Positions 50,034 to 55,130 of a DNA stretch of 64,000 bases are shown here, piece after piece. Where the stretch lies: positions 1 through 64,000 of the forward strand of contig CAWJBB010000041.1 of assembly GCA_963840855.1 (NCBI GenBank), read 5' to 3'. The first letter of the stretch is position 1. The number at the start of each line of letters is the position of its first letter. The translations under genes and the position numbers were made by a program. The notes beneath the pieces were generated by a model that was not told the origin of the DNA, did not search any database, and worked only from the letters and a program-made list of their open reading frames with translations. The DNA is from an uncultured delta proteobacterium (GTDB taxonomy: Bacteria; Desulfobacterota; Binatia; UBA9968).

Positions 50034-51109
50034 ATGAGGCAAAAATCCTTCTTTCGATTCCTTGGTTTTCAATCCGACAATCTAAAATCCAAAACCTGTA
50101 CTGAGCTATGTCGAAGGATCCAAAATCGAAAATTGGCTTGGGGTTTTCGCCCTCGCTGTCGCATTCGCTCTGTGTGGGGCGGTGGCCGAGGCGCAGCAGA
50201 CAGGGAAAATCCTCCGCATCGGTTTCCTGGATGCAAGCACTGCTTCCGGTAGCGCGGTCCTCGTGGAAGCGTTCCGGCAGGAGCTGAGCAAGCTTGGATG
50301 GATCGAGGGAAAGAATATCACCATCGAGTATCGGTTTGCAGAGGGAAAAGCCTGAGCGCCTGCCTGAGCTTGCGGCGGACCTGGTTCGTCTTAAGGTTGA
50401 TCTGATCGTGGTCACAGGGACGCCACGGCGTTAGCGGCAAAGAAAGCGACTACTACCATCCCCATCGTGATGACGAACGCTGGGGACCCCGTGGGTGCAG
50501 GTCTGGTTGCCAGTCTGGCGCGGCCGGGAGGCAATGTCACCGGGTTCTCGAGTTTATCGACTGAACTAAACACGAAAAGGCTAGAGATACTCAAGGACGC
50601 GGTCCCCAAGCTCGCCCGAGTTGGACTTCTGCGGCCGCGGGAGCCGCAGGATCAGACCTCCAACTGAAAGAGCTCAGGCCTGCGGCTCTGGCACTGAAGC
50701 TAAAATTGGAGGAGATCGAGACTCAAGCCGACGCCAAAGGTTTAGAGAGCGCCTTTCAAACCGCAAAGCAGAAGCAGGTGGGCGCGATTATGACGACCGC
50801 CGGTCGCCGCTTTTTCGCCGAAAGAAAGCGGATCGTCGAGCTTGCCGTCAAATACCGGTTGCCGGCTATTTACTTCTCAGAAGGAGTTTGTCGATGAGGG
50901 CGGCCTCATGTCCTACGGGGCGGACTACGATGACCTCTATCGGCTCGCGGCTGTTTACGTGGACAAGATCTTGAAAGGTGCCAAACCGGCTGATTTGCCG
51001 GTGCAGCAGGCAACGAAGTTTGAATTCGTCATCAACCTGAAGGCGGCAAAACAGATTGGTCTGACAATTCCGCCGTGTGCTCGAGCGGGCGAATCAAGTG
51101 ATTAAATAG
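50034..51109 (+). pseudogene. ABC_sub_bind-type substrate-binding protein, multiply frameshifted
   Basis: RIGFLD, DPVGAGLVASLARPGGNVTG, VDKILKGAKPADLPVQQATKFEFVINLK spread over several frames. Confidence 0.85.
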
Positions 51110-51129: not shown

Positions 51130-51212
51130 GTAGGGGCGGACCGGCGCCTGCCCTGAGCGGAGTCGAAGGATGTCCGCCCGTTCGGAGGGCCGACACGCAG
51201 GTCGGCCCCTAC
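51130..51212. repeat. GTAG-type REP doublet interrupted by a 24-bp unit
   Basis: gtaggggcggaccggcg[cctgccctgagcggagtcgaagga]tgtccgccc...gggccgacacgcaggtcggcccctac. Confidence 0.8.
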
Positions 51213-51544: not shown

Positions 51545-51832
51545 ATGGTACGTGTTCTAAGCTTATCAGAAGCCAAGGCCCATCTAAGCCGGATAGTGGC
51601 TGACTGTGAAAAGGATGAGGAAGAGCTTGTCATTACCCGAAATGGGCGGCCCGCGGCTGTTCTCATAAGCGCAGACGAGTATGAAGGGTGGCGCGAGACA
51701 AGAGAGATCATGCGGAACCGCGCCCTGATGAAGGAAATTAGACAAGGTCTGCGGCAGCTCGAGAAAGGCCGGCGGTTTACTTTTGAGGAAGTTTTCGGGG
51801 AGCCCTTGAGACCGAGCAAACCTCCGAAATGA
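51545..51832 (+). CDS. Phd/YefM family antitoxin
   Basis: LSLSEAKAHLSRIV..LVITRNGRPAAVLISADEYE..ET. Confidence 0.92.
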   Translation: MVRVLSLSEAKAHLSRIVADCEKDEEELVITRNGRPAAVLISADEYEGWRETREIMRNRALMKEIRQGLRQLEKGRRFTFEEVFGEPLRPSKPPK

Positions 51833-52128
51833 TCCGTTATCGCATCGAGATGCCTCGGGTGCTGCGGGATCTCATCCGCCATCTCCCGCCGGAGTTAAAA
51901 GCAAAAGTCAAAGCTACACTGAGATCAATTTCTGATGACCCCTATCGCGCTAAGGAGTTGAGGGACGAATTGGCAGGCTTGAGAAGCTGCCGGGTAGCCA
52001 GGTCCCGAGTCATCTATCGCATCGTAGGTTCCATGGTCCAAATCGTTGCGCTTGGACCCCGTGCGGACATCTATGAGCGTGCGGCCGCCGAACTCAGCAA
52101 GACGCTGAGAAAAGGCAAAACCGATTGA
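51829..52128 (+). CDS. RelE/ParE family toxin
   Basis: ATGA overlap; ELAGLRSCRVARSRVIYRI..IVALGPRADIYE. Confidence 0.88.
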   Translation: MIRYRIEMPRVLRDLIRHLPPELKAKVKATLRSISDDPYRAKELRDELAGLRSCRVARSRVIYRIVGSMVQIVALGPRADIYERAAAELSKTLRKGKTD

Positions 52129-52415
52129 CGAATACCAAGACCGCAACAGAATTCAGAGCGTTAATGTCTCTCTCGGGGATGGTTGAAATCTTTCGCCTTC
52201 AGGCGAAGTGAAAGTTCGTCATGCAGGCTAAGGCCGGCATCCAGGTGACGGACAGCGTCCCGTCATACCGTTGAAAAACGGTATCCAGGTTAAGGGGATG
52301 GGGATGGACCCCGGTTTTCACCGGGGTGACGATAAGGCCGGAATGACCGAGCGTTAATGGGACAGGCTACTTTTTCTGATTCTGTTGAAAAACCCACCGT
52401 TCGTCCTTCGAGGGC

Positions 52416-53867
52416 CTCTATTGATGTCAAGTCGCGAAAGGCACAAATGCTCTTATGAGTTTTCTTTTCCATGTTTGTTCTCCTATGAACTTAACAATCC
52501 TCGACCGAAGAGAGACTGCCTGCTATGCGTGGCACGGCACAAAGTCCGTCACACTGACTTGGGATGCGCCCCTCTCTAAGGCGTCTGGCCACGGGCTCTC
52601 TGTCTCAAAGATCGAACCGTTAGGAGTTGTCGTATCTCCTGGTTCTGGCTCTCGTCGAGTAGTTCCCTGGGGCACAGTCTCCTCCTGGGTCAAAGGAACC
52701 GATTTAACCTTTTTCCTGACTACATAGGGTCTTTGTTTCATCAACACGACAGAAATCCTGACACTGAGTTTTCGCGCCACTGCAACAATGGCGACTCGGG
52801 AAGCGATGTTTCGCGGATGCCTGCGGCAAACCGAGCGAAAGAATTCCCTCAGCTCAGCCGTCTTGGCGGATGGCCGAATAGGAACCTTGGATGAGCTTAC
52901 TTCTCAGCCGTGGGTCACCCGATATGGGTGATCGATCCCCGATCGATTCTCTCTCCGGTGGAGTTCTCCGTGGGCACCAAACCCAAAAAGACTGCCAGTT
53001 GGCGTATGTTGTTAAGCTCTCGACAGTCGCCGATGCGGGCCAGAAGTTGACTGGCCACAATCCAACCAATCACAGAAATCGTCATCAGGTATTTCATGCA
53101 GCGGGACAATTCCGGATCTGCTTACAGAAGCGGCGGATCTCTAGAGTCGTCTTAATAACGCGTTTCTCATAAAACTCCAAGCTGTCCAGCAACTCATAGA
53201 GCTTAAAGCGCACCGTCGAAGAACAGGGGAGCTTGCGCAGCTTCGCTTTCACAGTAAACGACCACTGACTGCCCCCAGGAGCCGGGGGAAACTCAATCCC
53301 TTCGAAAAGCAACAGCGATTTAATACGTTGCTTCATCCCGACCATGTCGCTGATAAAGGTGTCGCGCAATTGGGTGAGGTGGCGAAGCTCACGATACACC
53401 GCAGTGGGAACATGAATGCCTTTGAGTTGCCCCCCACGAAAGATTCTGCGCCAGCATCCGCTGTCCAGTAGATTGGTCTTCACTCTCTGTCCTGGTGCTT
53501 TGGGTATCATCGATGGAGAAGCGATCAAGCACCGATACGCTTGCGCCTCAAGCCCATCATACAAGCCGTACCCTGTCGGCCAGCCTCATAGGCGAAGGCT
53601 ACCTTCTGATCGGGAAAGTGCTTGCGCACATAATTCACAAGATGCTCCACGCTATACGGCATGCGCAGCGACTTAAGCAACCCTTGGTGATCGGCAAAGG
53701 TTACCGAGATGCTTTGCTTGTCCACGTCCAATCCGGCAAAGATATCGTAATCTCTGGGTATGAATGTTTCGCTTCTCATCGAAGTGCCTCCTCTGTACAA
53801 CCGGTTTGTGTGCCGCCATTGTACATGAGCACTCGTTTCGAAGCTCGACATCCATCATACAGGACTC
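52416..53867 (-). mobile_element. IS110-family insertion sequence (about 1.45 kb) inserted in a palindromic repeat
   Basis: Flanks rejoin as ccgttcgtccttcgagggc-CTC-aggaacgaacgg. CTC is present at both junctions (52416-18, 53865-67). The host repeat has 14-bp terminal inverted repeats at 52382-52395 and 53956-53969. Confidence 0.85.
52523..53779 (-). pseudogene. IS110 DEDD transposase/recombinase, several frameshifts
   Basis: FAGLDVDKQSI, AYEAG, RVKTN..DS, ELRHLTQLR, FLGLVPTENSTG, VAVARKL. True 3' end uncertain. Confidence 0.88.
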
Positions 53868-54143
53868 AGGAACGAACGGTGGAGCCGTTGAAATCATTGG
53901 AGTTATTTCCGTTCTACTGAGCTTGCCGAAGTATGAGCCTGTCGAAGCATTCTTAGGGTTTTTCAACAGAGTCTTTTTCTTTGACGGGCGATCTCGTGGA
54001 AGAGTAATGTTAATCAAGAGAACAAAAGTTGGTGGAGTGACAATCCCACTGGAGGTGCTCGCCCGGGCGAATAGGCTGATCAAGTGAGAAGGGGCGAGGG
54101 GTCAAGTGTCGAGTGACACGTGGTTCCAGAAAAAGAAAATGAC

Positions 54144-55130
54144 ATGAAGAAACAAATCACGGTCCTTACTCTTTGCGCTATGCTCTTTGCGCTTTGCTCG
54201 TTCGCCGAGCGCGCAGCAGCCAGGAAAAATCTTCCGCATAGGTTTCCTCGATCCAAGCACTGCTTCCGGTAGCGCGGTCCTCGTGGAAGCGTTCCGGCAG
54301 GAGCTGGGCAAGCTTGGATGGATCGAAGGAAAGAATATACACCATCGAGTACCGGTTTGCAGAAGCAAAAGACTGAGCGCCTACCTGAGCTTGCGGCGGA
54401 CCTGGTTCGTCTTAAGGTTGATCTGATCGTGGTCACAGGGACGCCATCGGCGTTAGCGGCGAAGAAAGCCACTACTACCATCCCCATCGTGATGACGAAC
54501 GCTGCGGACCCCGTGGGTGTAGGTTTGGTTGCCAGTCTGGCGCGGCCGGGAGGCAATGTCACCGGGTTTTCGAGTTTATCGTCCGAACTAAACACCAAAA
54601 GGCTAGAGATACTCAAGGACGCGGTCCCCAAGCTCGCCCGAGTTGGACTTCTGCGGCCGGCGGGAGGATCAAGACCTCCAACTGAAACAGCTCAGGCCTG
54701 CGGCTCTGGCACTAAAGCTAAAATTGGAAGAGATCGAGACTCAACTCGATGCCAAAGGTTTAGAGAGCGCATTTAAAACCGCAAAGCAGAAACAGGTGGG
54801 CGCGATTATGACGACCGCCGGTCGCCGCTTTTTCGCCGAAAGAAAGCGGATCGTCGAGCTTGCCGGCAAATACCGGTTGCCGGCTATTTACTTCCAGAAG
54901 GAGTTTGTCGATGAGGGCGGCCTCATGTCCTACGGGGTGGACTACGATGACCTCTATCGGCGCGCAGCTGTTTACGTGGACAAGATCTTGAAAGGTGCCA
55001 AACCGGCTGATTTGCCGGTGCAGCAGGCGACGAAGTTTGAATTTGTCATCAACTTAAGGCGGCGAAACAGATTGGTCTGACAATTCCAGGCCGAACGTGC
55101 TCGCGCGGGCGAACCAAGTCATTAAGTATG
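54144..55130 (+). pseudogene. ABC_sub_bind-type substrate-binding protein, multiply frameshifted; close paralog of 50034-51109
   Basis: Long stretches of near-identical DNA to 50210-51070. Confidence 0.85.

Follow-up and report, generated by a model that had tools for sequence, protein, structure and literature searches.

The stretch analysed here (the window: 64,000 nucleotides, positions 1 to 64,000 of contig CAWJBB010000041.1, assembly GCA_963840855.1, from an uncultured delta proteobacterium) contained an insertion sequence (IS) lodged in a repeated host hairpin. Positions 52418-53864 (minus strand) very probably hold a decayed copy of an IS1111-type element, within the IS110 family of RNA-guided DEDD/serine recombinase elements. 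Six copies of the element were found in the genome, the window copy included, and 20 related loci were found in other assembled genomes. All 20 insertions with both junctions readable (5 from this genome and 15 from other assembled genomes) occupied the same hairpin family in the same orientation, and covariation between guide and target supported RNA-guided targeting. This agrees with the proposal of the initial annotation, which was made from the letters of the window, that the element is programmed against the repeat of its own genome. The parts of the element in the window were as follows.

52418-53864, minus strand: IS body, 1447 bp (1449 bp with one copy of the core), type A copy of the IS1111-type element
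52706-53779, minus strand: transposase pseudogene with its ATG at 53779; the stop codon is lost and the last frame continues to 52523
53848-53860, minus strand: left-end arm of the subterminal inverted repeat, containing a -10-like TATGAT at 53854-53859
52418-52430, minus strand: right-end arm of this repeat, 3 nt short of its length in intact relatives and holding the -35 sequence TTGACA at 52425-52430

Four sister copies, named type B (79% identical to the window copy), were present at C7:87989-89275, C27:132166-133452, C40:4722-6008 and C83:33439-34713 (C, contigs of this assembly). They were identical, intact and 1429 bp long, and all four had an open frame of 358 aa. The protein of these copies (P0001) matched PF02371 (E 4.7e-23, 81.8 bits; cut-off 21.3), PF01548 (E 2.4e-13, 50.6 bits; cut-off 29) and the NCBIfam model NF033542, 'IS110 family RNA-guided transposase' (205 bits; cut-off 140), showing that the IS110-family assignment of the initial annotation was correct. 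One of the four fragments of the window gene matched PF02371 with 47.9 bits, another matched PF01548 with 21.6 bits (below the cut-off), and two were unmatched. With the catalytic residues of IS621 (D11, E60, D102, D105 and S241) as reference, D18, E65, D106 and S274-T275-G276 of P0001 were invariant in an alignment of five proteins. The third DEDD-aligned residue was Asn103, which the sequence alignment also placed in the IS4321-family and Microvirga proteins; the surrounding K-T-N-R-L-D (residues 101-106) was found in 12 of the 14 relatives listed, the other two rows being out of register or frame. Since Asn is common to this clade and to the IS4321-family and Microvirga transposases, it is a trait of the branch and not a lesion. 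The best identity of the type-B protein in the plasmid collection searched was 34.9%, placing the clade below 35% identity to any transposase of that collection. An IS4321-family transposase was 23.6% identical over 87% of the type-B protein length, and the solved IS621 and ISCro4 proteins matched its C-terminal domain only, with E values of about 1e-8.

The layout of the element was that of the IS1111 group, which is described as having a long non-coding region 3' of the gene and subterminal inverted repeats (PMC11187229, PMC11208160). Non-coding DNA 3' of the gene amounted to 290 nt (window copy) and 264 nt (type B), and the distance from the left end to the ATG was only about 85-91 nt. The arms of the type-B subterminal inverted repeat had 12 matching positions with one 1-nt gap (read by eye) and were inset by 5 nt on the left and by 2 nt plus the core on the right; repeats of 7-17 bp define the IS1111 group. 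GLVP....STG, corresponding to the IS1111-group motif GL-P----S(T)G, was invariant in the five-protein alignment, which included the IS4321-family protein. The initial annotation had instead compared the element with IS621, whose bridge RNA lies upstream of the gene in the left end. An IS110-group element of that kind would belong to the same Pfam and NCBIfam families, and IS621 is likewise reported to target a repeated palindrome (PMC11208160). However, about 85 nt between left end and ATG stand against 290 nt 3' of the gene, all four guide segments were located in the 3' stretch, subterminal inverted repeats were present, the STG motif was common to the IS4321-family protein, and IS621 reached only the C-terminal domain (E 9.6e-9), making an IS621-like arrangement very improbable.

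The IS1111-type element had entered a host repeat, the parts of which were located as follows (target names in IS orientation).

52382-52415, plus strand: left part of the host repeat, with the 14-bp terminal inverted repeat (TIR) 52382-52395, the stem 52394-52404 and the loop part TTCGAGGGC; right target (RT)
53867-53969, plus strand: right part of the host repeat, with the loop part CAGG, the stem 53872-53882, a second hairpin unit and the TIR 53956-53969; left target (LT)
52416-52417, no strand assigned: core CT (AG in IS orientation), copy at the right-end junction; bases common to both junctions, with only AG in type B
53865-53866, no strand assigned: core CT, copy at the left-end junction; bases common to both junctions

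Excision of 1449 bp (52419-53867) produced a repeat of about 139 bp whose 14-bp ends were perfect reverse complements of each other, confirming the hairpin that had been rebuilt in the initial annotation. The ends extended to 18 nt at 94% in an inverted-repeat search, and the two stem segments listed above paired perfectly over 11 nt. The rejoined flanks aligned through the junction with an intact repeat at C83:12231-12345, with an identical 13-nt loop, and also matched C40:6633-6691 and C34:81730-81774 over the junction; these were the 3 of 16 BLAST high-scoring segment pairs that covered at least 8 nt on each side. The exact 14-mer of the loop occurred at one other place in the genome, the C83 copy. 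Relative to the intact repeats, the window repeat contained an additional A, located 4-5 nt to the right of the junction. The initial annotation had named disagreement between intact repeats and rejoined flanks as evidence against its reading, and the two agreed. The short core at both junctions and the identity of the rejoined flanks with an intact repeat showed that insertion had occurred without target duplication, as had also been claimed, in the CCTGAG...TCGAAGG hairpin family.

The motif CCTGAG-N(4-8)-TCGAAGG was present in 145 copies in the 7.1-Mb genome when about 1 was expected by base counting, and one intact copy was found in the window at 51152-51169 (0.03 expected). The host repeat thus consisted of many dispersed copies of an imperfect palindrome, as in repetitive extragenic palindrome (REP)/bacterial interspersed mosaic element-like or miniature inverted-repeat transposable element-like repeats, and alignment of family members showed a short non-coding unit flanked by terminal inverted repeats. 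A repeat with such ends that encloses an IS could be read as part of a composite mobile unit rather than as a target that existed before the insertion. That reading was considered extremely improbable: copies of the repeat free of the IS were found at C83, C40, C34 and C28, and the hairpins that held the other IS copies had different surroundings. Among the type-B copies (n = 4), outer flanks differed from one another but were mutually complementary (CCC..GGG, GTGG..CCAC), and therefore represent host hairpins and not IS sequence. A link between the hairpin repeat and a Y1 transposase (of the kind associated with REPs) was rejected, as the motif was within 1.2 kb of none of the 10 matches to Y1_Tnp (PF01797) in the genome.

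CTC on the plus strand (GAG on the minus strand) was present at both junctions of the window copy (52416-52418 and 53865-53867); four registers of the 1449-bp insert, displaced by at most 3 bases, are therefore equivalent. By contrast, only AG in gene orientation (CT on the plus strand) was common to both junctions in the four type-B copies, and the same was true of the relatives. From these sequences, the crossover dinucleotide common to all insertions is most likely AG (CT on the window plus strand). The three shared bases in the window are probably this core plus one chance G, because the type-B AG register also fits the window copy. The GAG/CTC given in the initial annotation was thus seen in the window and did not extend to the sister copies. 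An empty site with the exact type-B loop was not found in the genome; four empty hairpins carried a one-base loop variant, which is the variant occupied by the C27 copy.

In all 20 insertions the left target ended in TGAG and TCGAA lay within 13 nt of the right target; the longer CCTGAG and TCGAAG were present in 17 and 19 of them, respectively. The flanks of the other copies, which the initial annotation had proposed to align, therefore belonged to one target family and not to unrelated sites. Six loci did not enter these counts: L017, which stops at the edge of its contig; L023, whose right end is followed by a run of N; L024, which lacks a left end; L020, for which a right end could not be located; L022, whose donor loop falls beyond the extracted sequence; and the C85 copy. 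The related loci carried the labels Binatia, delta proteobacterium, Syntrophobacteraceae, Pyrinomonadaceae, Sulfotelmatobacter, Nitrospira, Elusimicrobia and Patescibacteria. A match with E <= 1e-50 was obtained in 3 of 30 related genomes (G004, G009 and G015), two of which, G009 and G015, are unpublished.

The stretch 3' of the gene is predicted from sequence to encode a two-loop bridge/seek RNA, with the following parts in the window copy.

52499-52696, minus strand: predicted bridge/seek RNA scaffold, with an outer stem (52677-52696 with 52499-52516) around the target-binding and donor-binding internal loops
52647-52654, minus strand: putative right target guide (RTG), complementary to the target top strand right of the core; 7 of 8 bases pair in the window copy
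52602-52610, minus strand: putative left target guide (LTG) plus core plus 2 nt, identical in sense to the left junction, which reads TGAG followed by two IS nucleotides
52556-52561, minus strand: putative right donor guide (RDG), complementary to the core G and to the five bases that open the left end; in the window copy 4 of 6 bases pair
52518-52527, minus strand: putative left donor guide (LDG) plus core plus 2 nt, identical in sense to the right end, the core and the initial two target nucleotides; the window right end is without one base of it

The 3' stretches of the relatives aligned well with types A and B except in short variable patches. Four patches, all within this stretch, corresponded to the four guides defined for IS621, and the strand assignments were equal to those definitions, with LTG and LDG reading the bottom strand and RTG and RDG the top strand (PMC11208160). 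The RTG consisted of CGA and five variable bases, the LTG of ..TGAG and two bases, the RDG of a CAAGTC-like sequence, and the LDG of ATAGCAG and two bases. Among the 20 insertions, the RTG paired with its target at 8/8 positions by Watson-Crick pairs in 6, at 8/8 with G-U pairs allowed in 10, and at 7/8 or more in 15. The five variable positions paired at 59 of 80 places in the 16 distinct guide/target pairs, compared with a mean of 31.9 after shuffling, and none of 20000 shuffles reached 59. With G-U pairs the count was 63 compared with 39.8, and again 0 of 20000 shuffles reached the observed value. The base after the donor-guide core was identical to the first target base in 20/20 insertions, with G, T and C all used; the second base matched in 9/20, and both bases jointly were equalled by 47 of 20000 shuffles. 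The LDG was at least 8/10 identical to the right junction in 17/20 insertions and the RDG formed at least 5/6 pairs in 18/20. In L008 the RDG followed a changed left end, in L020 and L022 the LTG read TAAG where the target had TAAG, and in L022 the RTG paired 8/8 by eye.

A protein that picks its target by the shape or sequence of the hairpin, as IS200/IS605-type or REP-associated transposases do, would leave the RNA complementarity incidental. The constant target parts (TGAG and TCGAA) are invariant and cannot show covariation, and 12 of the 20 targets had at least 3/4 complementary stem bases outside the loop, both of which suit such a protein. However, the variable loop bases tracked the five variable RNA bases better than any of the 20000 shuffles, elements whose proteins were about 75% identical but whose guide cassettes differed occupied different loop variants, and L008 and L012 were inserted at sites without a good stem. 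Recognition by the protein was therefore judged improbable, and guidance by the RNA was retained.

The predicted RNA folded into an outer stem around two hairpin-capped internal loops bearing the guides, with a small hairpin in between. In a trimmed scaffold of 54 pairs tested on 17 sequences, 92.3% of cells were paired, compared with 34-54% when the partners were slid; the structure was derived from one of the tested sequences. RNAalifold paired the 3' half unlike the single-sequence fold, and the trimmed single-sequence scaffold was tested instead. Folding z-scores were weak (type B, -2.37; window copy, -0.84). Several results counted against a guide RNA of this form. Five of the 20 insertions paired at 6/8 or fewer RTG positions (L009, L012 and L015 at 6, L025 at 5 and L019 at 4), and the elements are related to each other, so that the shuffle tests overstate independence. 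Only 5 scaffold pairs changed on both sides, which 26 of 500 shuffles equalled, and RNAalifold gave 1 compensatory pair in 44. An Rfam scan of 52000-54300 at E <= 1 matched no family, and a sigma-70 scan of the integrated type-B copy gave 0 sites when 0.7 were expected. The scaffold is conserved and plausible in the model, not proven by covariation.

By analogy with IS621 and ISEc11, the element would leave as a circle in which its right and left ends meet at the core. Joining right end, core and left end would form TTGACA-17 nt-TATGAT facing the gene in type B and relatives, with a 14-nt spacer in the window copy. In intact copies the circle junction may thus create a promoter directed toward the gene, of the kind described for IS621 and ISEc11 (PMC12288879). 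An RNA of about 200 nt encoded 3' of the gene would then fold into the two internal loops, and the 5' and 3' strands of the second loop would read the element's own left and right ends. Recombination at the common AG would put the element into the CCTGAG-N-TCGAAGG hairpin loop without target duplication, leaving the 5' end of the gene always beside CCTGAG. Expression and processing of the RNA, circle formation and the order of strand exchange are steps that we infer from the analogous systems.

The copy in the window is probably a relic, damaged in its gene, its ends and its guides. Its gene was broken into at least four open reading frame pieces, with five single-base indels relative to type B near 53579, 53439, 53118, 52922 and 52856, and with the stop codon lost the last frame ran into the RNA region. 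The right end was 3 nt shorter than in intact copies and the first base of the left end differed. Substitutions relative to type B were found in a scaffold stem, the RTG had one mismatch to its own target, and the donor guides fitted poorly (right, 4/6; left, 6/10). The 14-nt spacer at the joined ends and a fold z-score nearer to zero than that of type B are further signs of decay. The proposal in the initial annotation that this copy offers a new bridge recombinase was thus not borne out. Of its proposed natural target/donor pair, what stands is the intact recombinase/RNA/target sets of the type-B copies on C7, C27, C40 and C83, and not the window copy.

Against real decay, the five indels may instead have arisen during assembly or polishing, as the stretch is rich in repeats and the neighbouring ABC_sub_bind gene was also split. 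The window copy would in that case be intact and active. Polishing tends to fail in repeats. All five gene lesions were single-base indels, and in three soil DNA runs and a single RNA run, contigs of 90-99% likeness (these represent relatives and not this locus) differed by one base at all five places, so that near-identical contigs from other soil samples were without the indels. The adjacent ABC_sub_bind gene lay in at least two frames, and the bins from 48 to 56 kb were poor in long open frames (only 0.28-0.32). On the other side, the assembly looked sound overall: its four type-B copies were all open and 79.5% of the genome was in stop-free frames of at least 200 aa. The indels were mostly outside long homopolymers, judging by the alignment to type B, and independent lesions other than indels agreed with decay, namely the substitutions in the scaffold stem and at the first base of the left end, the lost stop codon and the guide mismatch. 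A local assembly error was accordingly considered unlikely, and the window copy is likely to be truly decayed. Among public sequencing runs, the best share of sampled words of this stretch was 0.31. In the one RNA run compared, there was no cover over the 3' non-coding part, and no conclusion on expression, on excision or on habitat was drawn from these runs. The public runs also contained a single low-depth joint, 52395>53906 (depth 2.97, side 25), which is probably from another copy of the repeat.

Elements of this family that insert at an AG or CT core of REP-type palindromes under the guidance of an RNA from a non-coding end are established (PMC11208160, PMC11187229, PMC12288879), and the understanding of IS110/IS1111 systems is unchanged by the present finding. 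The IS1111 seekRNA elements ISEc11, ISPa11, ISKpn4 and ISPst6 (Siddiquee et al. 2024, PMC11187229) were similar in their described 3' non-coding region, subterminal repeats and GL-P----S/TG motif. Their RNA is described with the top-strand match on the 5' side of the bottom-strand match, an order opposite to that of the IS110 type and also seen among the guides here; the two matches overlap at the crossover, and each variant has a target of its own. Unlike the named IS1111 members, the element described here has a distant protein (23.6% to the IS4321-family protein) of 358 aa and a soil-bacterial hairpin as target, and is known here from sequence; 330-350 aa is the transposase length given for the family (PMC11187229). 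IS4321/IS5075, also of the IS1111 family and with an annotated copy in L026, had a transposase alignable over its full length, Asn at the third DEDD position and the STG motif, and it targets an inverted repeat, as the title of a work cited in PMC11208160 states. However, its identity was 24%, and it targets Tn21-type transposon ends rather than a host hairpin repeat.

Like IS621 (Durrant et al. 2024, PMC11208160; Hiraizumi et al. 2024, PMC11208158), the element has a two-loop RNA with four guides (here predicted), a repeated palindrome as target and a promoter formed at the circle junction (here predicted). Unlike in IS621 as described, the RNA is at the opposite end of the element, the guides in each loop follow the reverse order, AG replaces CT as the core in gene orientation, and sequence similarity is confined to the C-terminal domain. 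The handshake guides of IS621 adjoin RTG and RDG and read top strands (PMC11208158), whereas the extra covarying bases here follow the bottom-strand guides. For this reason, an opposite order of strand exchange, or recognition of the junction for excision, is possible. ISPpu9 and ISPpu10 of Pseudomonas putida are IS110-family elements inserted at AG inside REPs, many of them clustered and alternately oriented (PMC12288879); their host and repeat differ from those here. Unlike the present element, ISPpu9 is described as belonging to the IS110 group, with no end repeats, its RNA upstream, and circles without a junction promoter (PMC12288879).

The finding contributes a distant clade whose ends are exactly defined, together with an empty site and a natural series of guide cassettes matched to hairpin loop variants. 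It provides a worked natural IS1111-type example in which the ends, core, empty site and four putative guides can be compared with relatives that differ in cassette and target. Candidate recombinase/RNA/target sets are provided by the four intact sister copies and not by the copy in the window. Hairpin repeats of this kind, which are common among soil bacteria, serve as landing pads for RNA-guided IS, as REPs do in Pseudomonas and E. coli. A broader reading can be offered only tentatively. The clade, with Asn at the third DEDD position, might be a natural series of re-programmed IS1111-type bridge RNAs, re-set to loop variants of one hairpin family common to several soil phyla by means of the 5-nt RTG cassette and one or two bases after the bottom-strand donor guide, and with the strand-exchange order or junction recognition discussed above.

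The sixth copy in the genome (type C; L002; C85:157783-158915) was 93% identical to the window copy in the gene, rearranged and frameshifted. Its left end and most of its RNA region differed, the RNA region was truncated, and the 3' stretch folded at -15.5 kcal/mol. It had been considered as a third target/core type, with AGC common to both junctions and an empty-looking site at C65:137829, and was rejected on account of the aberrant left end and RNA region and the frameshifted gene. A contig from run X3 with the window-type left end ran into the flank of the C85 locus, and the C85 left end therefore looks secondarily altered. This copy was inserted in a member of a second, longer repeat family, a GTGG-TGAGGCTCTCGAA-CCAT hairpin with conserved flanks and many sites among the rows listed (for example C1:2865, C5:499, C6:43572, C12:1001, C34:113534 and C46:35825).

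In the C27 type-B copy (L003, about C27:131984-132219) the last 118 bp, from the interior of the donor loop to the right end, were tandemly doubled, and at the joint the right-end core AG was linked to an internal AG followed by TCAGTG. The arrangement suggests that the right end recombined with a pseudo-target located in the RNA region of the same element. Locus L006, labelled Pyrinomonadaceae (Acidobacteriota), had a protein 99% identical to type B on a contig of 2.6 kb, and other relatives were labelled Binatia or delta proteobacterium, pointing to either recent horizontal spread or a binning error.

The surroundings of the window copy contained the split ABC_sub_bind gene (PF04392) at 54187-55080 (plus strand) and a C-terminal fragment of an ABC_sub_bind paralogue at 50842-51105 (plus strand). 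The bins from 48 to 56 kb are either rich in pseudogenes or poorly assembled at this place. Immediately to the left of the repeat, at 51545-52128 (plus strand), overlapping genes for a Phd/YefM antitoxin (PF02604, E 5e-21) and a ParE toxin (PF05016, E 5e-7) were found.

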